Source: an uncultured bacterium (lineage in GTDB: Bacteria; Patescibacteriota; Minisyncoccia; UBA6257; 2-01-FULL-56-20). Taken from it: DNA of 64,000 bases. The stretch lies in assembly GCA_963719425.1 (NCBI GenBank), contig OY970382.1, positions 455,100-519,099 on the forward strand. Direction: 5' to 3'. Shown in pieces: positions 4,925-61,887 of this stretch. Position numbers and translations under genes: made by a program. The notes beneath the pieces were generated by a model that worked only from the letters and a program-made list of their open reading frames with translations, was not told the DNA's origin and ran no database searches. How positions within the stretch are numbered: the stretch's first letter is position 1; each line of letters begins with the position of its first letter.

Positions 4925-4946
4925 GTTCGAATCCTGTCCTGTGCAG
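4925..4946 (-). repeat. Dispersed motif copy, short form (rc CTGCACAGGACAGGATTCGAAC)
   Basis: Member of the 23-27-bp family GTGCAC-NGG-NC(T/A)GGA-(CGATYT)-TCGAAC; sits at the left boundary of cassette A. Resembles a tRNA T-loop/acceptor fragment (GGTTCGAATCC). Confidence 0.6.
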
Positions 4947-5029
4947 GGTCTTTACGTCGTCATTCGATAGTGATACAATATTCTACAGATGAGAGGCGTG
5001 GGACGATCCACAGAAACGAGGTTAAGGCA

Positions 5030-5269
5030 ATGCAAGCATCAAAACAAGAAATCCTCGATCAAGCCATCGAGGAACTCGCTGATCTCAACGTCAACACTTA
5101 CAACAACCTCCGGGCCCGGAACATCGTGACCATTGGGGACGTTGTTAAGCTCACGAGGGATGAGTTGCAGCGAGACACCCCGCAAGCGCGGCGGATGACA
5201 AAGGGAATGCTGGCCGACCTTGAGGGGGGACTTGCCAAGTTGGGCCTCTCCCTCCGGCCCTCGCAGTAA
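5030..5269 (+). CDS. Small stand-alone protein with an RNA polymerase alpha-subunit C-terminal-domain (alpha-CTD/HhH)-like fold
   Basis: 'LADLNVNTYNNLRARNIVTIGDVVKLTRDELQRDTPQARRMTKGMLADLEGGLAKLGLSL' parallels the RpoA CTD 'LSVRSANCLK...IGDLVQ.TE.ELL...N.GKKSL.EIK..L...GLSL'. An AAGG lies 4 nt upstream of the ATG. Confidence 0.5.
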   Translation: MQASKQEILDQAIEELADLNVNTYNNLRARNIVTIGDVVKLTRDELQRDTPQARRMTKGMLADLEGGLAKLGLSLRPSQ

Positions 5270-5365
5270 AACCACGGAAGGCAGGGGTTCGGACACCTCG
5301 TCTGCACTCCTGCCTTTCAAGCCTAAATTCACAAACTCATTGCGAATTGAGGCTTGGAGAGAAGT

Positions 5366-5392
5366 GTTCGAAAATCGTCCAGACCCGTGCAC
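5366..5392 (-). repeat. Dispersed 27-bp motif copy (rc GTGCACGGGTCTGGACGATTTTCGAAC) at the right end of cassette A
   Basis: Identical to the copy at 40555..40581. Confidence 0.7.
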
Positions 5393-5490
5393 CTATTTTC
5401 AAAATCCAGATCGTTAGGTTCTGAAAAAAGGTGGGGAGATGCAAAGATGTTATCTTGCAGAGCTCCCACAGTCCGATTGGGCTAGGAGTC

Positions 5491-5961
5491 TTACCGTCGG
5501 ACAGGAATCCAAGGTCGGACCTTCTTGCTGAGGCTGACAATGCTTCGGCACAAAGGGGCGAGCAGGTATCGCTTAACTGCCTTCCCTCCATAGAAGAGTC
5601 CAACGCACAGAACTACCAAGACAAGCATGATCTGGACCGTAAGCGTGAGCCCGGTGAACACATGGATCCAACTTTGTGGTTCCCAAGAGGCTGGGTCGGG
5701 GTCATGGGGGTCTGGATCTTGGGCGATATAGAAGACAGTGGCGGCGACCGCCCCCACGAGCGTAACAATCGCCGGAACCTTCAGGCCCTTTGCGATTGCG
5801 CCCAACAGGTGACCCACAGAGAGTTTCTTGCCCACGATCAACTCTCCTTTCCGAGCGGCCCTGACAACCGGCCTGGGAACGTAAATCAGAACGTAAACTA
5901 GGATGATCACGCCGACAATCTTCCAGCACACTGCGTCACTCAAAGGATCAAGGATACTCAT
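5491..5961 (-). CDS. Hypothetical membrane protein (3-4 predicted TM helices)
   Basis: Hydrophobic segments (IVGVIILVYVLIYV; AIVTLVGAVAATVFYI; LTLTVQIMLVLVVLCVGLF); start placed at internal MSILDPL. Confidence 0.4.
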   Translation of the reverse strand: MSILDPLSDAVCWKIVGVIILVYVLIYVPRPVVRAARKGELIVGKKLSVGHLLGAIAKGLKVPAIVTLVGAVAATVFYIAQDPDPHDPDPASWEPQSWIHVFTGLTLTVQIMLVLVVLCVGLFYGGKAVKRYLLAPLCRSIVSLSKKVRPWIPVRR

Positions 5962-6126
5962 CCGTTTTGCCTCCGTTTGAATTCGAGTGCCCCTTCGGGA
6001 CGTCCTAAGAAGTTTTCGCACCGAAGTTGAAGGGAACCTCTCGTCTAGGTCCTATTATATCAGGAGGATATCCTATTGTCAATACTTACTTCGCAAAACG
6101 GGCTTTTTTTGCTAAAAGCCAAGATC

Positions 6127-6153
6127 GTTCGAAGATCGTCCAGGCCGGTGCAC
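6127..6153 (-). repeat. Dispersed 27-bp motif copy (rc GTGCACCGGCCTGGACGATCTTCGAAC)
   Basis: Solo copy immediately preceding the large palindrome upstream of dnaE. Confidence 0.65.
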
Positions 6154-6183
6154 TTTGGTATAGGGATTAGCAAATGACCGTTC

Positions 6184-6357: not shown

Positions 6358-6458
6358 AAGCTATCTTTTTAAGCAAATTTTTAGTATCATGTAAGAGAAA
6401 TCAATATTTTATCCGATGTTCTGCATCCTCGCTTGCGGGGGCAACATAAAGAACTATA

Positions 6459-10060: not shown

Positions 10061-10078
10061 GCGCGAAACGGTGAAATG

Positions 10079-11548: not shown

Positions 11549-12203
11549 ACCACTGATTTAAAAATTTTTTAATGCTCCGCATGAAATGATATCTGGATGA
11601 GTTATGAAGAGGAGAAACGCGCAACAATCCAGCACTACAGAAAAATTAGGCGGATATGGTGCCCCGCACTTTGAGAATATGTCGTATTCAACAGAATCGG
11701 ATTTCAACATCTTGTTCGCAAAGGAAATATTCAGCGACCGAAAAGTGAACAGAGGCGGCGATTTAAGCTAATTTCTTACGTAGGAAACATCCTCGCCGAT
11801 CCAAATTCCGTCATTACCCAAAAAGAGAGGATCATCAAGCACCGGACGAAAATCCAAGGGGAAAAAATCTTGGGGGCACCGCTGGCACGTTTCTGGATAT
11901 TCACCAATCAGCGTAATGGGCAAACTATCAAACTGTGGTTAGGCAATTCAACGGCAAAGAAAAACATTTTCTCAGCATTTATGCTAAAAAACCCTCCAGC
12001 AAAAGAAGGGTTCCTTAGCATGCCTGCTGTCAACAATATGACGTCGACAGGGACAACCGCCCCGCAGGCATAGTTTCATATTAGGACACCGCATCCTAAA
12101 GTCAAATACCTTTTAAGAATTTTTTAATGAAAATTAAGCGCGCAGTCCGGGACGATATTCGAATAGTCTTGATATCCCTTCGGATCTGAACAGTGGAGAA
12201 AGG

Positions 12204-18275: not shown

Positions 18276-18307
18276 ACGCTTTCAAAGACTATACCATATG
18301 TCTTTCC

Positions 18308-18788: not shown

Positions 18789-18973
18789 TTTTTTATTTTT
18801 CTTTTTCCAAATCATAGCAATAAGAAAAGAAAACGCAAGTTTTCTTTAATACTTTTTTAATCCCGTCCAGTCATCGCGCCTTCCTATTTTACAGGAAGAA
18901 TAACTCTAAGGAAAGAATACGCTCCGCACGGGCCTTACCTCGAACGAGGCTAGCCGCTCTCCGCAGGACACAT

Positions 18974-19399: not shown

Positions 19400-19670
19400 T
19401 AAATAATTATACCCCTTTCGAATATAAATTTTTCTTTGATATTTTGTGCCAGTACGATAAGTTCACAACGGAAGATCTGCGAGTGAATACGAGAGAAAAG
19501 AGCGCCCCTTTCGCCTTTGAGGAACCTAGCGGAGGCGAGGAAAAAGCGCTCTCCGAGTGAGCAGAAAATTTGACGGGACCCCCGTGCTCGTCGCGGAGGG
19601 TGGCAAATTTTCGTCAGCGAACGAGGAGAGCGCCCGAGCCGAAGCGGGTTCCGAAAAAGCGGAAAGGGCG

Positions 19671-39036: not shown

Positions 39037-39351
39037 AATAATCAGCCCTTTTCTGCTTTTTCTCTAAAGTTGGTTTTATCAATGCTATGTTTTTCCATAA
39101 TTATCGCAATCCGGCTCTTAGAATCTTCAATAGCCGCCTCGACGATTTGCCGGAGATCAGCCCTCAATTCTTCTCTTTCCGATTGTTCCATTACGACCAA
39201 CATAGCATACGGGTGATTAAAATTATATAAAAAAATTGTTAAATTTTCCTTAAAAACTATTTGACTTTTGAAACGCTCTCTCTATCCTGAAAGTAGGTTC
39301 CTGCCTCAGGAATAAGAAGTAATTCTTACTCTTAGATTTCGACCCTACCGG

Positions 39352-39410
39352 GGCGACACGTTCATTTCTTATTTGTCGACGAATAAGAAATGAATCAGGA
39401 ACGTGTCGCC
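39352..39410. terminator. Imperfect palindrome/hairpin downstream of proS
   Basis: GGCGACACGTTCATTTCTTATTTGTC-GAC-GAATAAGAAATGAA(tcagga)ACGTGTCGCC. Confidence 0.4.
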
Positions 39411-39742
39411 TATCCAACGGTTGAGGCCACCACCCTACCCCGCCCGATCGTCTTTTTTCCGCGGGGAGGGTAAACTACATAAGAACCAAGCTCCAAGCAT
39501 CTGCCCCTGAAGGTCAGAAAGCCGCCGTGCACTGCGGGCGCCAATCGAAAGGTTGATGGTCAATGGGAGGATCGCTCATCCGAGCGTGGCGTCTCCCCAG
39601 AGGCAGATTCTTGGAGCTTTTTCTTTTGGAGCGCTTTGATATCTCTTGGACTGCGCGAAAACGCCGTTATTATTTCCCTCAATGATACTATGCTGTGATC
39701 TACCCAATGAATCAAAAACAGTTGTGATACAATCATCCTATT

Positions 39743-40225
39743 ATGAGACAGACAGCAAAAATATTAACGTTTCTGGGCTTATTGGGATTTCCGCTTTTAA
39801 CTTTTGCCGATCTGATAACCCCGTCCCCGGCCGAAACGATCGGTTCAATTCTTATATTTTTTGTTATAAACCTAGTTGTTAATTCAGTAATTATTTTTGC
39901 ACTTATTTCTCGCGACCGATTTAAAAAGTTGTTTCGCGGACCTTCTCTCTTAAAGATCCTGCTCGTAACCGCCCTGGGTCTTGTCGCTGACTTTATCGGA
40001 ATTCTTTGCGTGTCACTACTCTATACCTCTGATTTTACTCTTGGCCCTCTTTTAATTTTGGGTTTCATTATATGGATTTTAGTCGCTCTGAATTTCTATT
40101 TGATTTATTCCAGAGAGATATCCGACCAGAAAAAAACAAGGATAATAAAAGCAATCGTCTTCGGATTTATCAGCAATCCTTTTTGGCTAAGCTTGCCAGC
40201 CTATCTGGCTTCTATAAGACGCTAG
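39743..40225 (+). CDS. Hypothetical membrane protein (4 TM helices)
   Basis: Hydrophobic profile only. Confidence 0.45.
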   Translation: MRQTAKILTFLGLLGFPLLTFADLITPSPAETIGSILIFFVINLVVNSVIIFALISRDRFKKLFRGPSLLKILLVTALGLVADFIGILCVSLLYTSDFTLGPLLILGFIIWILVALNFYLIYSREISDQKKTRIIKAIVFGFISNPFWLSLPAYLASIRR

Positions 40226-40254
40226 CGAGAGAGCTTTTTCGTATTCATAAAAAG

Positions 40255-40281
40255 GTGCACGGGCCTGGACGATTTTCGAAC
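40255..40281 (+). repeat. Dispersed 27-bp motif copy GTGCACGGGCCTGGACGATTTTCGAAC
   Basis: Solo copy followed by a GGGGAGGGAG...CTCCCTCCCC hairpin. Confidence 0.65.
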
Positions 40282-40554
40282 TCACCTCTTGGCGATGCGA
40301 GCACAATAAAAAAAGCCCTTCTTGAGGGTCATTAAGGTTTCTTGTGGGGAGGGAGACACGATCTTTCATTTCCTCCCTCCCCAAAGACTTACCATCGGCG
40401 GTGATCAGTCGGAGTTCAGGGCCACGTCACTTCGCTTCATTCCCGTACGGCCGTTGTGCTTCTTCATGAGACACCTCGGTTTGTCATTTTGACGTCGGCA
40501 CTATCTTCCCCGTGCCACTTAATACAATAATGTCATTCTAAACCGCCGTTAAAT

Positions 40555-40581
40555 GTGCACGGGTCTGGACGATTTTCGAAC
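40555..40581 (+). repeat. Dispersed 27-bp motif copy GTGCACGGGTCTGGACGATTTTCGAAC (end of cassette B)
   Basis: Identical to the copy at 5366..5392. Confidence 0.7.
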
Positions 40582-40677
40582 ACTTCTCTCCAAGCCTCAA
40601 TTCGCAATGAGTTTGTGAATTTAGGCTTGAAAGGCAGGAGTGCAGACGAGGTGTCCGAACCCCTGCCTTCCGTGGTT

Positions 40678-40917
40678 TTACTGCGAGGGCCGGAGGGAGA
40701 GGCCCAACTTGGCAAGTCCCCCCTCAAGGTCGGCCAGCATTCCCTTTGTCATCCGCCGCGCTTGCGGGGTGTCTCGCTGCAACTCATCCCTCGTGAGCTT
40801 AACAACGTCCCCAATGGTCACGATGTTCCGGGCCCGGAGGTTGTTGTAAGTGTTGACGTTGAGATCAGCGAGTTCCTCGATGGCTTGATCGAGGATTTCT
40901 TGTTTTGATGCTTGCAT
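40678..40917 (-). CDS. Second copy of the small alpha-CTD-like protein (identical to 5030..5269)
   Basis: Identical 79-aa sequence. Confidence 0.5.
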   Translation of the reverse strand: MQASKQEILDQAIEELADLNVNTYNNLRARNIVTIGDVVKLTRDELQRDTPQARRMTKGMLADLEGGLAKLGLSLRPSQ

Positions 40918-41000
40918 TGCCTTAACCTCGTTTCTGTGGATCGTCCCACGCCTCTCATCTGTAGAATATTGTATCACTATCGAATGACGATGTAAAGACC

Positions 41001-41027
41001 CTGCACTGGCCTGGACGATCTTCGAAC
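41001..41027 (+). repeat. Dispersed 27-bp motif copy CTGCACTGGCCTGGACGATCTTCGAAC (flank of cassette B)
   Basis: Sequence family match. Confidence 0.65.
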
Positions 41028-41122
41028 AATTCTGGCTTTCAGCCGAAAACGGGCCTGTTTTGCTAGCAGCTTGACGTAAATCATTTTAAATCCTAGAATG
41101 CACCCAGAAACGGAGGTTTTGT

Positions 41123-41539
41123 ATGCTGAGCGGAGAATGGGACAGACTAAAAACACTGGAAGAAAGACGGCGCTTTCGGATTAGGGAGCAAGCGTACTTT
41201 CTCTCCACCCACCGAGAGAAGGAAGGTCGACCCCCCGACCCCGAGAGAGACTGGCTGAACGCCGAGTGGATTGAAGATAATCTGGAAACCTATTGCGGAC
41301 TGGAGCGAGACGTGAACTGGGCCATGAGCCGCGTGGGCGGGGGAGACAGGAGCTGGATGACTCCTTTTTCCTGTTTGCGTGCGCACGGAGAGACACAAGA
41401 GCAGCTCTCGGCCGCACTGGCCGTTGTAGTAACCGTGTTCACCTCGAAGCTTGATGTCGCAAGGGCTGTCAGTCAATCAAATACCTTCGCGGGGCTCATG
41501 GAGGAACTTGTCACGCAAATCCGTTGCAATTCACACTAG
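41123..41539 (+). CDS. Hypothetical protein with an N-terminal DUF2934-like motif
   Basis: 'RIREQAYFLSTHREKEGRPPDPERDWLNAE' resembles the DUF2934 consensus (..YELWE.RG.P.G.D..DWL.AE). Confidence 0.4.
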   Translation: MLSGEWDRLKTLEERRRFRIREQAYFLSTHREKEGRPPDPERDWLNAEWIEDNLETYCGLERDVNWAMSRVGGGDRSWMTPFSCLRAHGETQEQLSAALAVVVTVFTSKLDVARAVSQSNTFAGLMEELVTQIRCNSH

Positions 41540-41603
41540 GTTCGTTGATCGCCCCGCGACAATGCGAAAATCCCGCATTTGCTATCGCGGGGTTTTCGTT
41601 TTT

Positions 41604-41625
41604 CGTGCACAGGACAGGATTCGAA
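41604..41625 (+). repeat. Dispersed motif copy, short form GTGCACAGGACAGGATTCGAAC
   Basis: Matches the short-form copy at 4925..4946. Confidence 0.6.
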
Positions 41626-41693
41626 CAAAAGAAAAAGGCTGGCGCGTGATATTGGTTTTCCTGAGCATCCCAGGAAGATAACCAAGGTCGAAT

Positions 41694-41806
41694 AAAAGAC
41701 CCACATTTGGTTTTGAGGGGCATCTCGGAGCCGCGAAGGCGGCAAGAGCGAGGCGCGCTCCGAGCACGGAGCGACGCCGTCCCCGAAAGACCAAATGTGG
41801 GTCTTT
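41694..41806. terminator. Long stem-loop immediately downstream of the fusA stop codon
   Basis: 18-bp perfect stem AAAAGACCCACATTTGGT ... ACCAAATGTGGGTCTTTT enclosing ~77 nt of GC-rich sequence. Confidence 0.45.
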
Positions 41807-43913
41807 TAGCGTTTCTTCCCTTCTATAATCAGCTGCGCGATGTTCGCGGGCGTCGGCTCATAGTGGTCAAATTCCATAGTGAACGAACCGCGCCCCTGCG
41901 ACATTGAACGGAGCTCCGTCGCGTAGCCGAACATTTCGGAAAGCGGGACTTTCGCGTCAATCACTTTCAATCCCGGCCGGTCGCCGAGCGCTTCAATCCG
42001 ACCGCGCTTCGAATTCAGTTGTCCCGTCACCTCACCCAAAAAGTCCGGCGGCACGAGCACCTGCAATTTCATGATCGGTTCCAAAATGACAGGCTTTGCG
42101 CGCTTCGCGGCTTCCTGAAACGCGATGGAACCCGCAATCTTGAACGCCGCTTCTGAAGAGTCCACTTCGTGGAACGAACCGTCATACAACGTGACCTCAA
42201 CGTCCGTCACCGGATAGTGCGCGAGAATGCCTTTGTCCAACGCCTCCTTGACGCCCTTCTCGGTCGCCGGGATGAATTCCTGCGGGATCACGCCTCCTTT
42301 AATTTCGTCCAGGAACACAAATCCCGTTCCGCGCTGAAGCGCTTTCACGCGCAGCCAGACATGGCCGTACTGACCGCGGCCGCCGGATTGGCGGATATAT
42401 TTCCCTTCTGCTTCCGCCTCGCCCATGATCGTCTCCTTGTACGCCACCTGCGGCCGGCCGACGTTCGCTTCCACGCCGAACTCGCGCTTCATGCGGTCTA
42501 CAATGATTTCCAAGTGCAGCTCGCCCATGCCGGAGATAATCGTCTCGCCCGGTATCCGGATCCCCCGCCACGCGGAAGGTCGGGTCCTCCTCGGCGAGCC
42601 GGTGCAGGGCCGTGCCCATCTTTTCCTGGTCAGCTTTCGTTTTCGGTTCAATGCGAATACCAATCACGGGTTCGGGGAAGGTGATCCTCTCAAGCACAAT
42701 CGGCGAATCGGGATCGCAAAGCGTATCCCCCGTCGTCGTATTTTTCAGGCCGACAATCGCCGCGATCTCGCCTGCATAGACCTCTTCCACTTCTTCGCGA
42801 TCGTTCGCGTGCATGCGAACCACGCGCCCGATGCGCTCCTGATTGTCCTTAGTCGAATTTAAAACATACGAACCGCGCTTCAAAACGCCGGAATAATTCC
42901 GGAAATACGCGAGCGTGCCGACGTACGGGATCGGTCGCGATCTTAAACGCAAGCGCCGAGAACGGTTCATCGTCCTTCGCCTGGCGCGTGATTTCCGCGC
43001 CTGTTTTCGGATCGTGACCTTTGACCGGCGGCAGGTCCGTCGGCGCCGGCAGATACTCCACAACAGCATCCAGCATGAACTGCACGCCTTTGTTCTTCAA
43101 GGCCGAGCCGCAGAAGACCGGCACGATTTTGTTCGCGATGACTGCCTTGCGCAGCACGCGGCGAAGATCCTCAACGCCGATCTCCTTTCCGTCCAAATAT
43201 GCCGCCATCGCGTGGTCGTCATTCTCCGCGATCTTTTCAATTAATTCGTGGCGGCGCTTCGCAATGTCTGCCTTCATCTCGTCCGGGATCGGAATCTCTA
43301 CGATTTTTTCGCCATGCTCGCCTTCAGACCCGAACGCCTTGTTCAAAAGCAGGTCCACAATACCCTTGAAATTCGCCTCAAGACCGATCGGCAGCTGCAC
43401 CGGGATCGCGTGCGGCGTGAGCCGGTCAAGGATTGATTGAAAACTCCCCGTAAAGTTCGCGCCCATGCGATCAAGTTTGTTGATGAAACAGATGCGCGGC
43501 ACGTTGTATTCGTCCGCATAGCGCCAGTTCGTCTCCGACTGCGGCTCAACGCCCGCGACGCCGTCAAACACGACGACCGCGCCGTCCAAAACGCGGAGCG
43601 ACCGCTTCACTTCCACCGTGAAGTCAATGTGCCCCGGCGTGTCAATCAGATTGATGCGATGCTCGAACTTTTTGTCGTGGTTGCGGTAGGTCGGCGTCCA
43701 GAACGCGGTCGTCGCGGCCGAGGTGATCGTGATGCCGCGCTCGCGCTCCTGCTCCATCCAATCCATGATCGTGTCGCCCGTGTGCACCTCGCCGATCTTG
43801 TGCGAAACGCCAGTATAAAAAAGCACCCGCTCGGAGACGGTCGTTTTACCGGCATCAATGTGCGCGATGATTCCAATATTCCTTACCTTTTCTATCGGGT
43901 ACTGCCTAGGCAT
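41806..43913 (-). CDS. fusA: Elongation factor G, interrupted by two apparent +1 frameshifts
   Basis: Three consecutive ORFs cover EF-G domains: G' (42849..43913), II-III (42299..43069) and IV-V (41806..42663). Frame switches sit at ...AFKIATDP|YVGTLAYF... (~42925-42930, CCC run) and ...RVAGDPDTG|[12 protein letters not shown]... (~42548-42560, GGGGG/CCGGG runs). Total span is 2108 nt (3n+2). Confidence 0.8.
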
Positions 43914-45081: not shown

Positions 45082-45155
45082 GGGCCTGTAGCTTAGTGGC
45101 AGAGCAGCCGGTTTGCATCCGGCAGATAGGGGTTCGATTCCCCTCAGGTCCACCA
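45082..45155 (+). tRNA. tRNA-Ala (anticodon UGC) with the G3:U70 identity pair; CCA encoded
   Basis: GGGCCTG TA GCTT AGTGGCA GAGC A GCCGG TTTGCAT CCGGC AGAT AGGGG TTCGATT CCCCT CAGGTCC A CCA. Confidence 0.85.
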
Positions 45156-46649
45156 AAGTTTATTCAGCTCAAAAATATTTTGGACGCTTCGCGTCTTCTC
45201 GTGCGTTTCGGCCAGAGAGGAAAAGGGTTTTTTGAAATCCACCACGAGCGTTCCCGAGGCAAGGCGGCGGTTCGAGCCGATGGCGGCAAGAAAATCCTTC
45301 ATAGGTATCGGATTTTCTTGGTTCATCAGATTTATGGCTTGGTTGGCCTCGATTATCCAGTTGCGGAATAGTCCGAGCCAACGATTTCCTTTTCGCTCAA
45401 AATCGCCCAGTTGCTCGTCGAGCGTCTTCTTTTCGGAGAGGAGGCGGTTCTTCGTCTCCTGATATTCTGGTAGCTCGAACGAGCCGGAGAGATAGCCGTC
45501 GTTCCAGCGGTCAATCTTCATTTTAACGGCGGCTATCTTGGTACGCAGATTTTGGGCGAAAGCGTCCGACGAGCGGCGGGCTTCGCCCGTTTCCCCGTCC
45601 AGTTTCGATAAATATTTTTCTCGCCACTCGTCGGGCAAAGAAGCTTTTTGGACTAGCTCCTTCACTTGTCCGGCAAGAACTTCCTCCCGCACAAAGCGGG
45701 TTTGCGAACAGACCTGCGTCTTGCTCTTGAAGGTGCAGTGATAGTAATGGTATGTCCTGCCGTTCCGCTTCACCTTCCGTTCGCCAGTGATGGCATAGCC
45801 GCACTCGGAGCAAGTCGCAAACCCGAGAAACGGAAAATTCTTGTCGCTTCGCTTTTTGCGGGGCTTGCCGTTCAAGACAAGTGCCTCCTGTACTTGGTCA
45901 AAAAGCTTCTTGGAAATCATCGGCGTATGCGACCCCTCGTGCACCTCGCCCCGATACCGGAAATGGCCGTAGTAGAACGGGTTGGTTAAAATCTTCTGTA
46001 TGGAGGATAAGGCGAGGGGCTTGCCGTCCCTGCTCGTTAGTCCCACGGAAAACATCTTGTCCCGTATGGCCGTCTTCGTGTACCGACCCGTGGCAAAAGC
46101 TTCAAGACACTCCTTCACTTTATGGAAAGTATTTTTGTCCGGCTCGATGGTACGCAAGCGCGGCTCGTTGAAATACCCGATGGGAGCTTTTGCCGACAGC
46201 TCGCCCCGCCGTATCTTTTGCCGGATGCCCCGCAAGATATTTTCCCGCAGATTGTCGGTGTAATACTTGGCCTGTCCGAACGCGACCGACAACATAAATT
46301 TTCCCTGCGGCGTCGGCTCAAACCAGAAGGTAGGGAACTTCAAAGAAGTTATCTTGCCCGTATCCACGAGATAGATGACCCTGCCGCCGTCCACGCTGTT
46401 ACGAGCAAGTCGGTCGGGGTTCCATGCCAAGATGCCGGAAGCCGCGCCCTGCTCTATCTGGGCTACCATCTCGCCGAACACGGGGCGGCTGGGTTCCTTC
46501 GCGCTCTGACTCTCGGTGTATTCGCGGACGATGAACAGATTATTCTGTTCCGCGAACGCGCGAAGTTCGGCGAGTTGGGCTTCGATGCTCAACACCTGAC
46601 GCTCCTCGTCCTCCGACGACTTCCGGCAATAGATGAAATATTTATTCAT
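45144..46649 (-). CDS. Large serine recombinase (resolvase catalytic domain + recombinase domain + Zn-ribbon + coiled coil)
   Basis: 'MNKYFIYCRKSSEDEERQVLSIEAQ' (catalytic Ser region), 'LAWNPDRLARN', Zn-ribbon 'CSECGY...YYHC', long C-terminal coiled coil. The stop codon lies inside the tRNA-Ala acceptor 3' strand. The 35 codons upstream of MNKYF in the tracked ORF are encoded by IR1-R and are probably not translated. Confidence 0.8.
   Translation of the reverse strand: MNKYFIYCRKSSEDEERQVLSIEAQLAELRAFAEQNNLFIVREYTESQSAKEPSRPVFGEMVAQIEQGAASGILAWNPDRLARNSVDGGRVIYLVDTGKITSLKFPTFWFEPTPQGKFMLSVAFGQAKYYTDNLRENILRGIRQKIRRGELSAKAPIGYFNEPRLRTIEPDKNTFHKVKECLEAFATGRYTKTAIRDKMFSVGLTSRDGKPLALSSIQKILTNPFYYGHFRYRGEVHEGSHTPMISKKLFDQVQEALVLNGKPRKKRSDKNFPFLGFATCSECGYAITGERKVKRNGRTYHYYHCTFKSKTQVCSQTRFVREEVLAGQVKELVQKASLPDEWREKYLSKLDGETGEARRSSDAFAQNLRTKIAAVKMKIDRWNDGYLSGSFELPEYQETKNRLLSEKKTLDEQLGDFERKGNRWLGLFRNWIIEANQAINLMNQENPIPMKDFLAAIGSNRRLASGTLVVDFKKPFSSLAETHEKTRSVQNIFELNKLWWT
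45151..45273. repeat. IR1-L: 123-bp inverted repeat (partner 46713..46835); begins with the tRNA-Ala 3' CACCA
   Basis: Exact reverse-complement match by inspection; encodes the C-terminal ~40 aa of the recombinase. Confidence 0.85.
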
Positions 46650-46712
46650 AGTTATAAATCTTCGCCGCCATCGGCTCTTGCGCGGGTGAGCGCAAAACAA
46701 ATTCCATTTGTA

Positions 46713-46835
46713 GAACCGCCGCCTTGCCTCGGGAACGCTCGTGGTGGATTTCAAAAAACCCTTTTCCTCTCTGGCCGAAACGCACGAGAAGACGCGAAGC
46801 GTCCAAAATATTTTTGAGCTGAATAAACTTTGGTG
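46713..46835. repeat. IR1-R (inverted partner of 45151..45273), immediately upstream of the recombinase start
   Basis: Reverse-complement identity. Confidence 0.85.
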
Positions 46836-47131
46836 GTGTTTGTATCATAGCGTTCGGACGCATTTCAAGCAAAATTCCTGATCTGCTACCCCTGCAATTA
46901 CCCCTGCAAACCGGATTGCAGGGGTAGTCAATTGGGTAGTCAATCACAATTGACTGGCCTTTCCTGCGTTTTATGAAGATGCTACCTATCTTTTTGAGAG
47001 AACTCTGACCCCCGACAATACCCCCGAATGGGTCTGTTCAGCCCCCTCAGCCACTCGCACTACATAAGCCAAAATGTTGCTCGTGTCTTCGGGGGCTTCA
47101 CCTCGTCCGGCGTGCCTACAATTCCTCCCCC
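46833..47131. repeat. IR2-L: 299-bp inverted repeat (partner 49252..49550); contains multiple short sub-repeats/palindromes (TACCCCTGCAA x2, TTGCAGGGGTA, GTAGTCAATTG / CAATTGACT)
   Basis: Block-by-block reverse-complement comparison shows near-identity (1 mismatch seen); contiguous with IR1-R. Confidence 0.85.
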
Positions 47132-47168
47132 TGCTTTTTAGCCTACCACAATATCCAAAGTTTGGATA

Positions 47169-47420
47169 TTGATTTTTTGGATGGATGATTTAGAGTATAT
47201 GAGTAAGTCCATCCAAACAAAGGAGTACGCCTATTTTGTCGAGCGATTGCGGAAAGCCAGATTAGACGCAGGGCTAACGCAATTGCAGGTTGCAAAGAAG
47301 ATAGGCCGTCCGCAGTCGCACATCTCGAACATCGAATCAGGGCAACAGAGGGTGGATGTAATCGAGCTAAAGCGGTTTGCGAAGTTGTACAGGAAAAGCA
47401 TCGGATATTTTATAAAATGA
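47169..47420 (+). CDS. XRE-family HTH transcriptional regulator
   Basis: 'LTQLQVAKKIGRPQSHISNIESGQQRVDVIELKRFAKLY' is a Cro/C1-type HTH. Confidence 0.7.
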   Translation: MIFWMDDLEYMSKSIQTKEYAYFVERLRKARLDAGLTQLQVAKKIGRPQSHISNIESGQQRVDVIELKRFAKLYRKSIGYFIK

Positions 47421-48538
47421 AAAACCAAAAAGGCTCCATCCAAATACCGTTACTAATCGCAATCATTGCGTGTGTTTTAATTATTGGAGTTGGCGGCTAT
47501 GTGATTGGTATAAAACAGCATCAAAACAATCTAGTTGGGAACAATGGAAAAGAACAGCAAACGCAGGCATCGACAACAGATCAACGAACAAGCGCAGAAA
47601 GTATTACTAAAACTAGTACCCAATCGGGTGATTTAATCAGTCCCCAAATTAGTGGCAAGAAAACTCCAACTCAAGAAACAATCATAACGCCAAGTCTAAA
47701 AACCACACCATCATCATCTATAGGATACATCTCACAAGAAACAACTTTGTATTCCTTAACAGTAAATCAATCTGGTGTAACAAACTTAGTATTCATAAAA
47801 ACGCTATCGAGAGGAACCCAAGTTACCTTAATGAATGACATCTACAAAGACTGGTCAAAGATCATGGTTGATAATCAAGAAGGCTGGGTTTTCACTACAG
47901 ATTTAGTTAATGATGAACCATCGACTCCATTGCCAACTCTGATTAAACAATGGCGGCCAATTGTAGCTTATGTGGAATGTGATTTTCGTGATACTAATAC
48001 CCACGAACTTTATTTGCAAGTGCAGGGATCGGGAGTAGCGATGGATTTTAACGGACAAATTACTGTTGTTACAAACAGACACGTCATTGTCGACCAAAAT
48101 GGGTATCAACCATATATTTGTAGAGCGAAACTACCAGACGACAGCGCGATATTTACAGGCCAGAAATTTACAGGCGGAGGATCAATTGATATTGGATTAA
48201 TTGATATAAATAACCCCGACGAGTACATAAAAAGCTTAACTTCCTCACAAGTGACTCCGATGGATTTTTGTAGACAAAAACCTTCTCTAGGTGACGAGAC
48301 CATTATTTTGGGCTATCCAAGCATAGGGTCACAAACCGATATTACGGCAACGGAAGGTATCATTTCTGGTTATGATGGCGATTACTTCATAACTTCTGCA
48401 AAGATAGATCACGGGAATTCAGGTGGAGCGGCTATATTAGAAAAGGGTAATTGTTATCTGGGAATCCCATCTTTTGCAGTGGCTGGGAGCATTGAATCCT
48501 TATCAAGAATTTTGGATATAAATGCGGCGTTGCGATAG
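47417..48538 (+). CDS. Membrane-anchored trypsin-like (S1-family) serine protease with an SH3b-like domain
   Basis: N-terminal TM (IPLLIAIIACVLIIGVGGYVIG), Ser/Thr/Gln-rich linker, SH3b-like 'YSLTVNQSGVTNLVFIKTLSRGTQVTLMNDIYKDWSKIMVDNQEGWVFTTDLV', protease triad His ('VTNRHVI'), Asp ('DIGLIDI'), Ser ('DHGNSGGA'). Confidence 0.65.
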   Translation: MKNQKGSIQIPLLIAIIACVLIIGVGGYVIGIKQHQNNLVGNNGKEQQTQASTTDQRTSAESITKTSTQSGDLISPQISGKKTPTQETIITPSLKTTPSSSIGYISQETTLYSLTVNQSGVTNLVFIKTLSRGTQVTLMNDIYKDWSKIMVDNQEGWVFTTDLVNDEPSTPLPTLIKQWRPIVAYVECDFRDTNTHELYLQVQGSGVAMDFNGQITVVTNRHVIVDQNGYQPYICRAKLPDDSAIFTGQKFTGGGSIDIGLIDINNPDEYIKSLTSSQVTPMDFCRQKPSLGDETIILGYPSIGSQTDITATEGIISGYDGDYFITSAKIDHGNSGGAAILEKGNCYLGIPSFAVAGSIESLSRILDINAALR

Positions 48539-48575
48539 TATTTTTTAAATTAAGACAACTAAACAGTTTATATTC

Positions 48576-49196
48576 ATGCTAGATCAAGAGACGCTAAATC
48601 GCTTTATTCACAACGCCAATGTTGCACATCAACAATTCTGCGTTTGGATGTATACGAATAACGAGTTTGCAAAACATCGAGACGATTGGAATAAAATAGC
48701 TGAACCAAGAAAACTTTTTGCAATAGAGGAATTTTCGCGGGATAAAGGATGCAAGTACAAAAACTTTTGGGGCGTGGTAATTTTTTCGCTTCAGCGTGGG
48801 TGGATTTTATCTTTGGCACGGCTGTTTGATCCGTCCTACCATTCACACGATAAGAAAAGAGAGAAGCCGCGATTATCTTTAAATTACATACTGGAATTAC
48901 TTGGCGATGTTTCTCTTGCTCAATCGATTCGTGGCAAATTTAAAAAACACCAGCAAACGATTCAATCGCTAAAGACACAGCGAGACAATTTCATCGCTCA
49001 TAACGATGTGAATTTCAAAGGTACAAAAATTAAAGCGGGTGTAGAAAACTTGTTTGAGGAGTTAAATGAAGCTGTTTCGGATATCAAGCGGAGCAAGAAA
49101 CATCTCGCAAGTTGCGACGATATCAATCTTAAATATACGGAAGTTTTGTCTCGCTGTGGCGTAGATGAAGTTTTTGAGGCATTATTGAGAAGTTAG
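48576..49196 (+). CDS. Hypothetical protein with a possible HEPN (AbiU2-like) Rx4-6H motif
   Basis: 'TQRDNFIAHNDVNF' (R-x5-H-N-D) in an otherwise helical ~200-aa protein; AT-rich gene. Confidence 0.35.
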   Translation: MLDQETLNRFIHNANVAHQQFCVWMYTNNEFAKHRDDWNKIAEPRKLFAIEEFSRDKGCKYKNFWGVVIFSLQRGWILSLARLFDPSYHSHDKKREKPRLSLNYILELLGDVSLAQSIRGKFKKHQQTIQSLKTQRDNFIAHNDVNFKGTKIKAGVENLFEELNEAVSDIKRSKKHLASCDDINLKYTEVLSRCGVDEVFEALLRS

Positions 49197-49251
49197 CCCG
49201 CTTCGCGGGCAAAAAGCTTGAACTCCCGCGAGGACGTGCCAAAAGGAGGTT

Positions 49252-49550
49252 GGGGGAGGAATTGTAGGCACGCCGGACGAGGTGAAGCCCCCGAAGACAC
49301 GAGCAACATTTTGGCTTATGTAGTGCGAGTGGCTGAGGGGGCTGAACAGACCCATTCGGGGGTATTGTCGGGGGTCAGAGTTCTCTCAAAAAGATAGGTA
49401 GCATCTTCATAAAACGCAGGAAAGGCCAGTCAATTGTGATTGACTACCCAATTGACTACCCCTGCAATCCGGTTTGCAGGGGTAATTGCAGGGGTAGCAG
49501 ATCAGGAATTTTGCTTGAAATGCGTCCGAACACTATGATACAAACACCAC
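49252..49550. repeat. IR2-R (inverted partner of 46833..47131); right end of the element
   Basis: Reverse-complement identity. Confidence 0.85.
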
Positions 49551-50062
49551 AGAAAAATAAAGGACCGCGACGCGAACGTGCGGTCCCCACAGAGTGGAAA
49601 AAAGGGATAGGGTAACTATACCCTCAGGTCGAGCCGAGGAGGGGTAGCGTAACGGATGGCACAATCGGTCAACGCCCCGAAAAGGGTATACACTTGAATG
49701 ACGTTTTCCACAGACACCCTCTGGCGTTCGCGAATGGCGCAAAGGATCCCCACAGTGGATGCAACCTCCTCCTGCACCACCGCGAGAGATTTGCCTTCTC
49801 TCTCCCTCTCTTCGAAAAACCTCCTGAAGGTGAGAGTCGTTTCCGAACCATCAACTGCGGCAAGTCCTCCACCACAAAGAAATTGAATTGCTTCGCCGAG
49901 AGTCCCATCGTCGATCGTTTCTTCCTCTTGAAATCTTTTGACCCTCGACGAAATGTGTAAACAAAAAAACGCGATCCTTGATGACATATTCCTCTCAAAC
50001 GCCGCGAAAGTGCTGGCTGTCGTCAAGTATTAACTATCGGAAAGACAATTTCAAGGTATCTC

Positions 50063-50903: not shown

Positions 50904-50972
50904 CACTTCGGAGATTAAAAAATCATTAAAGAACTTTTGACATTGCGCGATTTTCGCCTACGCTTATGAGCA

Positions 50973-51320
50973 ATGCCGGAGATTACGCTTAATCAGCTTG
51001 CGGAGAATATTGAAAGGCGATTTGACGCTATTGATCTGCGCTTTGAGGCGATGGCTAAACGGTTTGATGCGATGGACCAGCGCTTTGGTGCGATGGACGC
51101 ACAAATTGAGAAGCTGGCGACCGCGGCGCAATCGGAATTCATGACCATCCACAAAGAAATGACTGCCATGGACAACCGCCTCTCGTATGCCATCGGACAA
51201 GTTGACGCCCATCTTTCCGCCTACGCCACACAGTGGAACAGAGAATCCGAAAACCTCCGTAGGTGGACGGGGGAACTTGAAGGCCGGCTCACGCTGCTTG
51301 AACGAAAGCAGGTGTCATAA
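50973..51320 (+). CDS. Hypothetical coiled-coil protein with an 'RFDA(I/M)D' heptad-like repeat
   Basis: 'RFDAIDLRFEAMAKRFDAMDQRFGAMDAQIEKL'. Confidence 0.4.
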   Translation: MPEITLNQLAENIERRFDAIDLRFEAMAKRFDAMDQRFGAMDAQIEKLATAAQSEFMTIHKEMTAMDNRLSYAIGQVDAHLSAYATQWNRESENLRRWTGELEGRLTLLERKQVS

Positions 51321-51369
51321 GTGAAAAACGTCCGGACCCGACCGGTGGATTTGTCCACAGGCCGCCGCT

Positions 51370-51927
51370 TTGCGCAGCAGCACTGTCCACAGGTGCCGCT
51401 TTTGCCACGCAGCGGCTTCTTGTATAATAGAGGAAACAATGAAGCTTGAGAAAAAGACGGCGGTTTTGATCATCGTGGGGGTCGTGATCTTTGCGGCGAT
51501 CATTGTATGTGCATATTTGTACGGGCCATCATGGCCAACGATGCCCCAAGCGACCGGTCCCGCGCCTGTCCACGCCCCGCAGGGGCAGGTGGTTGCGGGT
51601 TTCCCCAAAGATCTCATCCTGGACAGCGAGGTGCAGGTGGCGAACAGCTACACCGTCCATTATTCCTCAAACATGCATCAGTACACCGTGCAGTGGAACT
51701 CCTCAAGCTCGGTGGCAAGCATCTATAACAACTACCTCGGGTACCTCCCAACGCACGGCTGGACGATCATGAACCGGTTCACCGCGCGCCCCGACCTGCG
51801 CGGCCTCTACGCGACCGAAACTAACACCACATCATCGGCCAACGTGAACGTCACAATCGCAGTGCGGGGCATGGGGTCACAGGTAAGCGTGAACTACGCG
51901 GTGACGGAGAATCCAATGGCGAAATAA
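51370..51927 (+). CDS. Hypothetical membrane-anchored extracytoplasmic protein
   Basis: N-terminal TM (TAVLIIVGVVIFAAIIVCAYLY) then a soluble domain. Confidence 0.4.
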   Translation: MRSSTVHRCRFCHAAASCIIEETMKLEKKTAVLIIVGVVIFAAIIVCAYLYGPSWPTMPQATGPAPVHAPQGQVVAGFPKDLILDSEVQVANSYTVHYSSNMHQYTVQWNSSSSVASIYNNYLGYLPTHGWTIMNRFTARPDLRGLYATETNTTSSANVNVTIAVRGMGSQVSVNYAVTENPMAK

Positions 51928-51928
51928 C

Positions 51929-53257
51929 ATGAAAAGGATCTGGTTCATCATAGTGGTTGCGGTGTTCACGCTTTCTTCTTTATTTTTGCTTTCCGTTTCC
52001 CGTGTCGCCTTCGCCGCCGCCGGTGGGTGCGGTTTTAAGATATCCCCGACCGGCGTCACCGTCATCGCTGGAGGAACCGCGACGGTGACAGAAAGTTTTT
52101 CGTGCTCGCCCGTTCCAAAAGGCGACATGGCAACCGACGATGTTACGAACAGCGCCGCCGACCCCTCCATCTTTTACGTGGATCCTGGCAGCTGCTCTAT
52201 CGTGATGGGGAATAATTGCACGGTAACCATCTATGGAGAAAGCGTCGGCACGTCCATTATGACCGCGAACTCCAATATTGCAACGGATTGGCAGGGGTCC
52301 TATACCAAAACCGACACCATTTCTGTTACCGTCACCCCTGCCCCCACCAGCGACATCCTCCCCGCCATGATTTCAATTGACAGCGCTACCGTGAGTGCGG
52401 GTTTGCTCGCGGTGTCCGGCAAGGCAATGGGGCCCTTAATAACACAAGGGCAAGAATGTCCCCAACCCTCAGTCGTAGTAGAAGACGAAGAGGCACTTCC
52501 TCTCATGAATCCGACCTACGCCATAGACGGGGGGTCAAGCACAGCGTTTTCTTTTACGCAGGTGCAGAAGGGCATCGATCAGCCGTGCGGCTCCGCCACC
52601 ACACCAGCCAGACCTTACGAATACTCGTTTTCTTTTAATGTGGATGTGAGCAGTCTTGCTCCCGGCACTCACATGATCACAGTTTGCGCGACGGATGGCG
52701 AAGACCCTGCCGTGTGTGCTTCGAAAACGTTTTCTATCTCTGGCGGAACGATTATCGTCAATTCGGTAAATACTAATGGCCAGCCAGTTGCCGCATCGTG
52801 GACGCTCTTCGGCCCGGTCAACCCTTGCAGCGGATATGGAGGGTCATGCAGCAACGTGTCCCAAGCAACGTATACTAACGTGCCAAGCGGAGGCTATGCC
52901 TTGGATCCCAGCGGCATCCCTTCGGGGTACAGCGATTACACTATTTCCCCGTGCGGTGCCACCGACACTTCCTGCGGGTGGCAGGTCACGAACGGCGGCA
53001 CGTTGACCTTTACTATTGTGTGGTCGGCGAAGCCAATTCTCGCCGCGTCGTGGGGCAGTTGCGGCTCTAACGTACAATCGCTCCAAGAGACCTGGCCGGC
53101 CAACAGCCAGCAAAGCCTCTCGTTTTGCGTATGGAATGCCGGGCCAACGAGTTCAATTCTGACTGGCGTACGCTGCACACAAGGAACAGCCCCAACGGGC
53201 AGCTCGTTGTCTATAATTTGTAATTTCGGGTCGTTAAGCGGCACGGGGGGAGATTAA
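51929..53257 (+). CDS. Secreted protein with Ig-like/beta-sandwich domains
   Basis: Signal peptide (MKRIWFIIVVAVFTLSSLFLLSVSRVAFA); Thr/Ser/Gly-rich beta-strand composition, multiple Cys. Confidence 0.45.
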   Translation: MKRIWFIIVVAVFTLSSLFLLSVSRVAFAAAGGCGFKISPTGVTVIAGGTATVTESFSCSPVPKGDMATDDVTNSAADPSIFYVDPGSCSIVMGNNCTVTIYGESVGTSIMTANSNIATDWQGSYTKTDTISVTVTPAPTSDILPAMISIDSATVSAGLLAVSGKAMGPLITQGQECPQPSVVVEDEEALPLMNPTYAIDGGSSTAFSFTQVQKGIDQPCGSATTPARPYEYSFSFNVDVSSLAPGTHMITVCATDGEDPAVCASKTFSISGGTIIVNSVNTNGQPVAASWTLFGPVNPCSGYGGSCSNVSQATYTNVPSGGYALDPSGIPSGYSDYTISPCGATDTSCGWQVTNGGTLTFTIVWSAKPILAASWGSCGSNVQSLQETWPANSQQSLSFCVWNAGPTSSILTGVRCTQGTAPTGSSLSIICNFGSLSGTGGD

Positions 53258-53325
53258 AGTGAGCCCCCACGCTCTCGCAAGCGTAGGGGCTACTAGAAAC
53301 ATCCAAGCAGTAGGCGGGCAGATCC

Positions 53326-55491: not shown

Positions 55492-55661
55492 CGCTTTTTA
55501 CCTCCGGCCAGCCTCCTACGGCTGACCATCATATTCTAAACGTTGCGGGCTCCCTCAACCTACGAGAGTTACCCGAAACTATCTATACTATACCAGTTTC
55601 CGCGCAGAAAGTCAAAAGTCGGAAAAACGCGAATTTGATGGTAAATTGAACATGTAAACCT

Positions 55662-56111
55662 ATGGACTGCATCTTCTGCAAAATAGCAAAAGGAGAGGCG
55701 CCTGCGCATACGATATGGGAGGATGAAAAACATTTGGCGTTCCTCTCTATTTTCCCCAATACAGAAGGCTTCTCGGTGGTGATTACGAAGGAACACTTTC
55801 CAAGCTATCCTTTTGATTTACCTGAGGAGATATTGGTCGGACTGCTTTTGGCGACGAAGAAAGTCGCGAAGCTTTTGGATGACAAGCTTGATGATGTCGG
55901 GCGGACCGGTATGATTTTTGAAGGTTTTGGTGTTGACCATGTGCATGCAAAACTTTTTCCCATGCACGGTACAAAAATGCCGGAATGGAAACCGCTCAAG
56001 TCAAAGATCAATAAATACTTTGAGAAGTATGAGGGCTATATCTCATCTCATGATTACAAGCGTGCCGATGATGAAAAGTTAGCGCGGCTCGCGGAGAAGA
56101 TCAGGAGCTGA
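55662..56111 (+). CDS. HIT-superfamily (histidine triad-like) protein
   Basis: 'MDCIFCKIAKGEAPAHTIWEDEKHLAFLSIFPNTEGF' and 'GFGVDHVHAKLFPMHG'. Confidence 0.6.
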   Translation: MDCIFCKIAKGEAPAHTIWEDEKHLAFLSIFPNTEGFSVVITKEHFPSYPFDLPEEILVGLLLATKKVAKLLDDKLDDVGRTGMIFEGFGVDHVHAKLFPMHGTKMPEWKPLKSKINKYFEKYEGYISSHDYKRADDEKLARLAEKIRS

Positions 56112-56266
56112 TTTTGTTAAATAGGGGAGGCTCGGGAGATCAATGCTCTCTGGCAACGGAAATTCTTGGTCAAGACTGGACAAGGTTCAATTTATCTGCA
56201 ACCGATTTCACTGTCATCACCAAAACCCTTTTATGCACACCCCTATAATCTATTCACAATGCTATA

Positions 56267-58684: not shown

Positions 58685-58687
58685 ACG

Positions 58688-59734: not shown

Positions 59735-59755
59735 TGGCTCGTGCAACATAGCATC

Positions 59756-59828: not shown

Positions 59829-59977
59829 CAAATCAGTGAGGCCCGGTTATGTTATAATAATTGATTATAATAACTGATGGGAATGGGGCCGAAGGTCATT
59901 TTGTAGTATGGTATAATAAATGAAAGGTCGCTGTAAGAATTAAGTTGAATAAAAACTCGTAATTACTAATAAAAATC

Positions 59978-61660: not shown

Positions 61661-61887
61661 GCAGCACTTGCCGCGAGCAACTACTGCAGCGATAAGCCGG
61701 GTGTTTACCCGCCCATCGGCGATTACTGCAGCCAAGTCAACTCATCATCCCCCCCCAGTAACTCCTCATCACAAGCACCGTCCGATCGGAGAAACCATAT
61801 AGCGCCCCTCCCCGCAGGCGTTCCAATAGACCTTGAGCACGCCTATCTCAGCCGCGAGGCAAAAGGTGTGCTATACTATGGGCACGA

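Follow-up and report, generated by a model that had tools for sequence, protein, structure and literature searches.

Probable recombination sites modelled on tRNA 3' ends delimit polar arrays of small cassettes in Patescibacteria

We analysed a 64,000-nt stretch of contig OY970382.1 (hereafter the window) from an uncultured member of the Patescibacteria, or Candidate Phyla Radiation (CPR), and found that seven copies of a motif ending in TTCGAAC are grouped into two polar arrays of small cassettes. The copies are very probably recombination sites that bound these cassettes, and the motif is best explained as the conserved half of an attachment site modelled on the 3' end of a class-II tRNA (Tyr or Leu). 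In the mechanism favoured here, to which we assign a probability of roughly 0.6 on the basis of sequence comparison, the motif would provide attB- and attP-type half-sites derived from tRNA ends, at which mini-cassettes would be captured serially by a large serine recombinase (LSR) supplied in trans. The acting enzyme is most likely an LSR of the kind that targets tRNA 3' ends.

Site arrays and cassettes in the window and its relatives

The motif occurs in a long form (L) and a short form (S). The pattern TGCA-N(8-18)-TTCGAAC has seven matches in the window against 0.79 expected, a number reached in none of 100 shuffles, and the S 22-mer (three or fewer mismatches) has two matches against 0.00 expected. 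With a profile restricted to long sites from other genomes, all five long sites of the window are recovered at E-values of 1e-9 to 1e-12, and the two short ones at about 0.01. An earlier note on this DNA, made from its letters alone, had listed the same seven copies, and all of them are confirmed far above chance. It had called the motif dispersed, but the seven copies make up two oppositely directed arrays, 4925-6153 and 40255-41626, around 35 kb of core genes. Both arrays have the order L-cassette-L-cassette-(L-cassette)-S in the orientation of the motif, and the units between sites measure 300-761 bp. The sites and cassettes are the following.

4925..4946, minus strand: short site A (S), candidate attB-type half-site, terminal in the left array, mimic of tRNA positions 53-73
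4947..5365, minus strand: first copy of the alpha-CTD cassette, belonging with site B; 79-aa gene at 5030-5269 (plus strand)
5366..5392, minus strand: long site B (L), candidate attP-type half-site of the alpha-CTD cassette; shares the variable bases GGGTCTGGA with site E
5393..6126, minus strand: cassette with a predicted membrane protein of 156 or 176 aa (5491-5961/6021, minus strand) and no Pfam match
6127..6153, minus strand: long site C (L), innermost in the left array; adjoins the flank with a hairpin (6172-6369) and then dnaE at 6459
40255..40281, plus strand: long site D (L), innermost in the right array
40282..40554, plus strand: cassette D, without an open reading frame (ORF), with a terminator-like hairpin at 40344-40382
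40555..40581, plus strand: long site E (L) of the second alpha-CTD cassette
40582..41000, plus strand: second copy of the alpha-CTD-like cassette; gene at 40678-40917 (minus strand)
41001..41027, plus strand: long site F (L)
41028..41604, plus strand: cassette with a TTGACG-N17-TAGAAT promoter, ribosome-binding site, 138-aa ORF (41123-41539) and terminator
41605..41626, plus strand: short site G (S), presumed terminal landing pad of the right array, followed by a hairpin (41693-41808) and fusA

The two size classes recognized in the earlier note are real, but the forms differ by exactly 5 nt (CGATY) and not by the 6-nt insert CGAT(T/C)T. The start GTGCAC, assigned there to all copies, does not apply to those at 4925 and 41001, which start with CTGCAC. 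The conserved block reaches about 33 nt and is extended on the TTCGAAC side (GTGCACaGGcCTGGACGATgTTCGAACgaTttT). A logo drawn from 45 L and 7 S sites of all origins gives G-TGCAC-aGG-cCTGGA-CGATg-TTCGAAC-gaTttT. Alignment of the copies with their flanks, a check proposed in the note, agrees with the logo: the TTCGAAC side alone is conserved, and the opposite side has only a G at position -1. A degenerate eighth copy of the long type, GCGCGCAGTCCGGGACGATATTCGAAT (12136..12166, plus strand, profile E 0.08), is probably a relic, and a degenerate S-like stretch is found at 18925-18947.

The flanks also place the breakpoints of a duplicated cassette inside GTGCA. This cassette carries the 79-aa gene, whose product matches the Pfam domain RNA_pol_A_CTD (C-terminal domain of the RNA polymerase alpha subunit, alpha-CTD; E 2.8e-7), and forms a 461-nt inverted repeat, 4932-5392 / 40555-41015, with 99.8% identity over 446 nt. 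It adjoins S in the left array and is second from S in the right array, and its neighbours differ. At one end the identity stops right after ...GACCC-TGCA, and the two copies continue with AGGACAGGA-TTCGAAC and TGGCCTGGA-CGATC-TTCGAAC, respectively. At the other end the entire L (GGGTCTGGA-CGATT-TTCGAAC...) is common to both copies, and the sequence before TGCAC differs. The variable site bases N7, N10 and N12 segregate with the downstream cassette. The breakpoints imply that each cassette owns the L on its TTCGAAC-proximal side and that the exchange point lies within GTGCA; strand exchange most probably takes place at the invariant GC (tRNA positions 71-72). The junctions are reproduced in an independent Logan assembly (L045), which contains the cassette end, site F, the 138-aa cassette, site G and the hairpin. 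Exact-sequence look-ups gave no match for the 79-aa and 99-aa forms of the alpha-CTD-like protein and for a 160-aa ORF, and only an identical 993-nt contig for the 138-aa ORF.

The strict L pattern was found at 14 loci in 185,579 species-representative genomes. Twelve of them come from six metagenome-assembled genomes (MAGs) of Patescibacteria, with two or three loci per 0.25-0.9 Mb contig; the other two are from Tenacibaculum (L011) and Rhodococcus (L009), the latter of which may be a chance match. In metagenomes the strict pattern was found on 30 peat and bog contigs. The earlier note had allowed that the motif might prove to be of chance frequency or peculiar to the window, and it is neither, because it also occurs in related MAGs and peat metagenomes. 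Relaxed scans yielded arrays of one to four L sites spaced 323-2157 bp apart. S is single and last on the TTCGAAC side in all 15 independent non-redundant arrays that contain it; random site order would give this with a probability of about 5e-7 (a rough product of 1/n over arrays).

Among 36 distinct cassettes the median length is 484 bp; they span 0.3-2.2 kb overall and usually contain one ORF of 55-339 aa. Several have a sigma-70-like promoter 17-45 nt downstream of L and a terminator just ahead of the next site, and many sites lie directly 3' of intrinsic terminators. These signals would suit a regulatory element, such as an operator or UP-like element, perhaps bound by the alpha-CTD-like protein, or else a repetitive extragenic palindromic (REP)-like element or structured RNA. 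The earlier note had offered operator, REP-like element and alpha-CTD binding as candidates. All of this is now very unlikely and largely refuted. The cassette genes may have either orientation to the motif (14 of 36 sense, 22 antisense), and the alpha-CTD-like protein is cargo that was copied with its cassette and is absent from all motif-bearing loci outside the window. ARAGORN and Rfam (at gathering thresholds and at E up to 10) report no tRNA or RNA family at the seven window sites, and DNA folding of these sites gives no stable fold (z-scores -1.2 to +1.1). Strong hairpins do stand beside three copies, as the note had said, but are not general to the family. Moreover, the low number of clustered loci per genome does not fit a REP-like element, and the S-last polarity, the tRNA identity and the duplication breakpoints would be left unexplained. 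Among the roles listed in the note, the evidence supports only that of a recombinase or att-like target site at cassette boundaries.

The closest relatives of the window are the MAGs Minisyncoccia bacterium SPRUCE 501 (about 91% nucleotide identity), MFD03726 (89%) and MFD01476 (82%). Between the window and MFD01476 (L002) the position of site G and the order S-hairpin-fusA are kept, and the cassettes differ. On its proS side the right array is syntenic with an array of SPRUCE 501; only the cassette farthest from S is shared, the first ~105 nt of cassette D being homologous to the first cassette of that array. The S-side flanks of the two arrays (window 39048-41626, L005 2252-5420) differ, with the hairpin and fusA in the former and tRNA-Asp and ligA in the latter, so that the right array coincides with a synteny breakpoint between genomes that are ~91% identical. 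The SPRUCE 501 array also has a NUDIX gene as cassette cargo (L005 4774-5238; assigned from the translated N-terminal sequence).

A second difference from SPRUCE 501 is seen between a NUDIX gene and secY. SPRUCE 501 has L-cassette-S there (L026 4008-4490), and the window (18300-19450) has 1.15 kb of unrelated small ORFs and at most the degenerate S-like relic at 18925-18947. Pads thus can be gained or lost along with arrays. We also considered the loci L025, L043 and L021 as evidence of cassette shuffling and rejected them: the breakpoint between L025 and L043 lies inside an ORF and not at a site, and is therefore uninformative on site-specific exchange.

tRNA likeness and half-site geometry

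The reverse complement of S reads GTTCGAATCC-TGT-CCTGTGC-A and comprises the T-loop, the 3' T-stem, the 3' acceptor strand and the discriminator, i.e. tRNA positions 53-73. In the stand-alone S copies (n=11, both window copies included) the similarity to tRNA stops exactly at position 53. The reading of the short form as a tRNA T-loop/acceptor fragment, already made in the earlier note, turned out to be literally true in relatives, where a tRNA gene has its 3' end at the S position: tRNA-Tyr in L004, L006 and L012, and tRNA-Leu (GAG, UAA, UAG) in L014/15, L016, L022 and L018/41. In these seven tRNA-ended arrays, which are additional to the 15 arrays with S, L is located 0.35-1.2 kb downstream in the same orientation.

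L consists of the two modules of S with 5 extra bases between them. A scan that permitted 0-8 nt between the modules found no other spacing in 69 distinct sites from the window and 44 loci of related MAGs and metagenomes. When the search was anchored only on NGG-N3-GGA-(N5)-TTCGAAY, G-Y-GC-R-C was found to precede every site (G in 69/69, C in 68/69). In L010, an L and an S separated by 517 bp are identical except for CGATG. In serine integrases, attP and attB share the recombinase-domain (RD) motif by the crossover, and the position of the zinc-ribbon-domain (ZD) motif is 5 bp nearer the crossover in attB than in attP (PMC3783163). S and L differ by exactly 5 bp between the same modules, as in this published rule, which suggests that S behaves as a B-type and L as a P-type half-site. 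The family would be an unusually clean natural illustration of the rule, with one sequence present in both registers dozens of times.

A tyrosine recombinase could be proposed instead of an LSR, in the form of an integron-like system, a tRNA-targeting integrase that leaves partial tRNA repeats, as in tycheposons, or Xer acting on dif-like sites as in integrative mobile elements exploiting Xer (IMEX) or pdif modules. The arrays are polar and have one special terminal site, comparable to attI plus attC, and tyrosine integrases classically target the 3' ends of tRNAs. When the G before it is counted, L has a length of 28 bp and is loosely dif-like (GGTGCGCA ... ATGTT.AA), and the L018/L041 array abuts a XerC/D-like gene. 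We nevertheless consider a tyrosine recombinase quite unlikely. No Phage_integrase domain was found in the 50 ORFs scanned in the window, and among 30 array-flanking ORFs at 17 loci it was found only in the Xer-like gene of L018, which looks like a housekeeping gene and has no homologue at other arrays. The sites lack an attC-like fold, as indicated by the z-scores given above, and the cassettes have their own promoters. Site bases 7-12 follow the downstream cassette, which places the crossover to the left of base 7 and rules against a dif-like central crossover (bases 12-17). Finally, two site lengths that are 5 bp apart fit neither a fixed overlap of 6-8 bp nor identical partial-tRNA repeats.

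For capture by a serine recombinase the following steps can be proposed. The chromosomal pad would be composed of a variable half and S (variable half | S), and a circular cassette of its own end and L (own end | L). Recombination at GC would produce (variable half | L)-cassette-(cassette end | S). Each insertion would thus keep S in place and move older cassettes away from it, and L would be the element-borne attP-type half-site of a self-contained cassette with a promoter, ribosome-binding site, one gene and terminator. Since the non-S half is seemingly irrelevant, the product would still be a usable pad, and the next cassette would enter between the previous one and S. An LSR would catalyse these insertions, and the present cassettes may still be mobile. 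Serial insertion predicts that S is always last, that L always stays with its cassette and that cassettes are older the farther they are from S; the most distant one is in fact the only cassette common to the window and the SPRUCE 501 array.

More tentatively, we speculate that the arrays represent a CPR serine-recombinase counterpart of the integron, in which portable 21-bp pads that mimic a tRNA 3' end are reused indefinitely through recognition of a half-site only, and self-expressed cassettes of one gene, with no site but an attP-type half-site (the pad sequence plus 5 bp), are captured serially in trans by an LSR that targets tRNA ends. If so, it would be a gene-capture system in CPR bacteria, which are ultra-small, for the most part cannot be cultured and exchange genes by routes about which little is known, and LSRs would be able to build integron-like arrays of kilobase-scale cassettes, beyond islands of the size of the staphylococcal cassette chromosome (SCC). 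The same sites would drive rearrangements, for example the synteny breaks and the inverted arrays around 35 kb of core genes. Recognition appears to need only one conserved half-site, which is relevant to the engineering of serine integrases whose landing pads can be reused. Hotspots of flexible genes in Patescibacteria MAGs can readily be located with the motif, which also flags positions that are prone to assembly problems and rearrangement.

Large serine recombinases and the weight of the evidence

The only recombinase found in the window is an LSR of the family that targets tRNA 3' ends. It belongs to an island at a tRNA-Ala gene with the following features.

45133..45157, plus strand: 3' end of tRNA-Ala, B-type arm of the island attL, with GTTCGA 18 nt before the CCAC core
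45144..46754, minus strand: LSR gene with Resolvase, Recombinase and Zn_ribbon_recom domains (Pfam); its 3' end overlaps the tRNA-Ala 3' end, and its true start is probably near 46649
~46836-46863: inverted copy of the P arm within an intact attP junction
49523..49550, plus strand: P-type arm (attR), with GTCCGA 23 nt before the CCAC core

When the three island junctions are aligned on CCAC, the core common to the partner sites of this tRNA-Ala system, the tRNA-Ala arm has GTYCGA at -18 and the element arm has it at -23, the same shift of 5 nt as between S and L.

The island itself (45082-49600) has attL at 45150, an inverted attP junction at ~46836 and attR at 49547. It contains near-perfect inverted repeats of 124 nt (45150-45273 / 46713-46836) and 299 nt (46833-47131 / 49252-49550). 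Its cargo looks defence-like: a helix-turn-helix (HTH) protein (47190-47420), a trypsin-like peptidase (47417-48538) and a HEPN/AbiU2 protein (48576-49196). In L002 the tRNA-Ala gene is present without the island. The structure could be a real arrangement, invertible or derived from a dimer, or else the product of an assembly that mixed the integrated form with the excised one.

A scan with the DNA pattern only gave two LSR-bearing loci, L008 and L011. In L011, from Tenacibaculum, the 3' end of the LSR gene abuts an L. In L008 the LSR is 37% identical to that of the window, and its element has an L on one side and an S on the other. LSRs closely related to that of L008 are 86-89% identical to it, and the left end of the element, GCCCTTACCCGGTCTCG, was found in four loci. 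The right end has a conserved P' arm, ...CTCAAGNNTG, whose partner at the ...TG|T-GC junction varies: L008 has a Tyr-like S there, L128 a tRNA-Lys-like fragment that neighbours the genuine tRNA-Lys, and L130 the following element. These junctions imply that LSR elements use S-type tRNA-end mimics as the chromosomal arm and exchange at the same GC. The L of L008 was considered as an end of the LSR element and rejected, as comparison of L126, L128 and L130 places the element end at GCCCTTACCC; this L bounds a separate cassette of ~380 nt.

In L128, three units of ~88 nt, each made of ~45 nt of the 3' part of tRNA-Lys and GGCAGCGAGTTGAGAAT, flank the LSR element beside the real tRNA-Lys gene (4512-4620, 5361-5440 and 10066-10130). 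Partial-tRNA pads can therefore multiply locally.

CPR bacteria encode very many members of the LSR family, with more than 8000 matches at E below 1e-60. In IMG/VR, 289 LSR relatives were found, and a tRNA gene (Asp, Ser, Gln, Glu, Trp or His) faces the LSR 3' end in 17 of the 58 loci examined, as tRNA-Ala does in the window. No Tyr-type S or L sites were found in 80 IMG/VR LSR loci, and no P-type (+5) copies of the adjacent tRNA end were seen within 4 kb at such loci, the elements exceeding the flanks searched.

The same sites and enzyme class also allow a different history, in which the small cassettes are not mobile, the arrays are eroded remains of full-size LSR elements that had inserted successively at tRNA-like pads, the alpha-CTD cassette was duplicated and the genomes diverged by homologous recombination or gene conversion. 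Erosion would account for the lack of any recombinase in most arrays, the ORF-less and seemingly truncated cassette D, the degenerate relics at 12136 and 18925, and the L025/L043 breakpoint inside an ORF; decayed tRNA-targeting islands are also known, e.g. tycheposons (10.1101/2020.12.28.424599). Still, this history seems rather unlikely to us. The 36 distinct cassettes are compact single-gene units, and a near-perfect 33-nt L is kept at 45 sites while the cassettes are otherwise unrelated, although erosion should have affected the sites as well. The duplicated cassette has its two breakpoints precisely within GTGCA, and tblastn searches of the arrays revealed no fragments of LSR pseudogenes.

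Several observations weigh against serial capture by an LSR acting in trans. Just one half of each site is conserved, whereas characterised LSR sites have two recognisable half-sites. The sole invariant dinucleotide, GC, is palindromic, and the neighbouring positions vary within arrays; in characterised LSRs an asymmetric dinucleotide sets the polarity, and yet the arrays are strictly polar. The internal junctions are attP-like, so insertion needs recombination with a hybrid (attL-like) site. Such recombination is avoided by model LSRs (PMC3783163). No LSR is present inside or adjoining either array of the window, the LSR of the window is 3.5 kb away and has its own tRNA-Ala sites, and no LSR was found at most other arrays. 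No LSR-bearing element with its own L-type arm was found either, the L008 clade using the P arm GCCCTTACCCGGTCTCG. Neither circular contigs that would represent excised cassettes nor empty sites were observed. The model leaves the origin of the stand-alone 21-nt S copies unexplained (compare the NUDIX-secY locus). Lastly, the loci were gathered through the L pattern, and because of this ascertainment bias S-only pads are under-sampled.

Related systems and other features of the genome

The sites and arrays would function like an integron or an SCC island and belong to neither. There is experimental precedent for mobilisation of tandem recombinase-less SCC-like cassettes by Ccr serine recombinases (PMC11470126). 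As in SCC and SCCmec, tandem cassettes are located at one chromosomal att site, where a conserved gene has its 3' end, and the tandem units, many of them without a recombinase, are bounded by att-core repeats. In contrast to SCC, whose target is rlmH, the target here is the 3' end of tRNA-Tyr or tRNA-Leu or its 21-nt mimic, the cassettes, at 0.3-2.2 kb and with one gene each, are smaller by a factor of 10-100, the element arm is a version of the chromosomal arm expanded by 5 bp, several pads are present per genome, and the host is a CPR bacterium. Integrons resemble the arrays in polarity, in small and mostly single-gene cassettes, in a single terminal site at which new cassettes would enter, in a site that travels with the cassette, and in cassette content that is variable between close relatives. 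Unlike integrons, the arrays have no IntI, folded attC hairpin, GTTRRRY core or common Pc promoter; the site core is GTGCAC and TTCGAAC, the cassettes have their own promoters and terminators and either orientation, and the half-site geometry is that of serine recombinases.

Tycheposons of Prochlorococcus share with the arrays the integration at tRNA 3' ends and the tRNA-derived repeats through the island. In tycheposons, successive insertions push older elements inward, as proposed for the arrays, and a minority use LSRs (10.1101/2020.12.28.424599). They have identical partial tRNAs on both sides and contain an integrase and replication modules, whereas the units described here are recombinase-less mini-cassettes, their repeats are a derivative expanded by 5 bp, and the pads often lack a tRNA body. 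The LSRs of phages A118/LI, Bxb1 and phiC31 have sites with two-module half-sites in which the outer ZD module is shifted by 5 bp between attB and attP (PMC3783163), and the LSR genes likewise encode Resolvase, Recombinase and Zn_ribbon_recom domains. Their canonical sites are 40-50 bp long and consist of two imperfectly symmetric half-sites with an asymmetric central dinucleotide, and hybrid sites are not used; in the arrays one half is conserved, the dinucleotide is GC, and reuse of hybrid sites is implied. The dif sites of Xer are 28 bp long with a fixed central exchange of 6 bp, in contrast to the two length classes found here and to S being part of tRNA genes. REP elements, bacterial interspersed mosaic elements (BIMEs) and miniature inverted-repeat transposable elements (MITEs) are represented by many dispersed hairpin copies, unlike the two or three clustered loci without a fold.

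Insertion sequences appear to accumulate in or beside the arrays. In MFD03726, genes of IS481-family transposases with rve domains are located 35-54 nt from L in two arrays (L003 5575-6594 and L006 2661-3596).

Very stable multibranch hairpins (about -70 to -128 kcal/mol), in which a long outer stem surrounds two inner hairpins, form a family of their own. They were found in the window at 6172-6369, 41693-41808 and ~19460-19660, and in relatives at L002 795-930, L003 ~7700-7900, L026 ~4490-4740 and L017 after 13880. The core of the hairpin at 41693 is 96% identical in L002; the outer stem is different and still paired. In at least five loci such a hairpin lies within 100 nt of a stand-alone S. 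They could be structured RNAs or belong to a portable pad module.

An AT-rich intergenic motif with a consensus of about AGTCAAAGGTTCTTTAATAATTTTTTAATG was found at 4326, 11557, 12100, 18833, 29980, 31944 and 39219 of the window. It is also present ahead of the first L of the L003 array and of the degenerate L at 12136, and its probable role is that of a promoter or terminator signal.

The window is a chromosomal stretch that includes dnaE, lysS, map, adk, secY, ribosomal-protein operons, tuf, mreBC, proS, fusA, six tRNA genes and a gene for a PBP2-like penicillin-binding protein (Pfam transpeptidase and PBP dimerisation domains). The fusA gene (elongation factor G, EF-G) is split over three overlapping frames (41806-42663, 42299-43069 and 42849-43913), and its orthologue in L002 is an intact 774-aa ORF; the split is likely due to indel errors of assembly or to a pseudogene. 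Two adjacent adenylate-kinase paralogues are encoded at 15277-15891 and 15888-16475, and two NUDIX genes at 4286-4786 and 17826-18275.

The genes of tRNA-Arg and tRNA-Lys are 45 nt apart in L002 and 8.85 kb apart in the window (50905-59755). The insert encodes proteins of 442 aa, 721 aa, 805 aa (with 141-nt tandem repeats at 56382-57347) and 348 aa (pilin-like), and a 560-aa PG_binding protein is encoded after tRNA-Lys (59830-61896). This region is a further tRNA-flanked island, with no recombinase.

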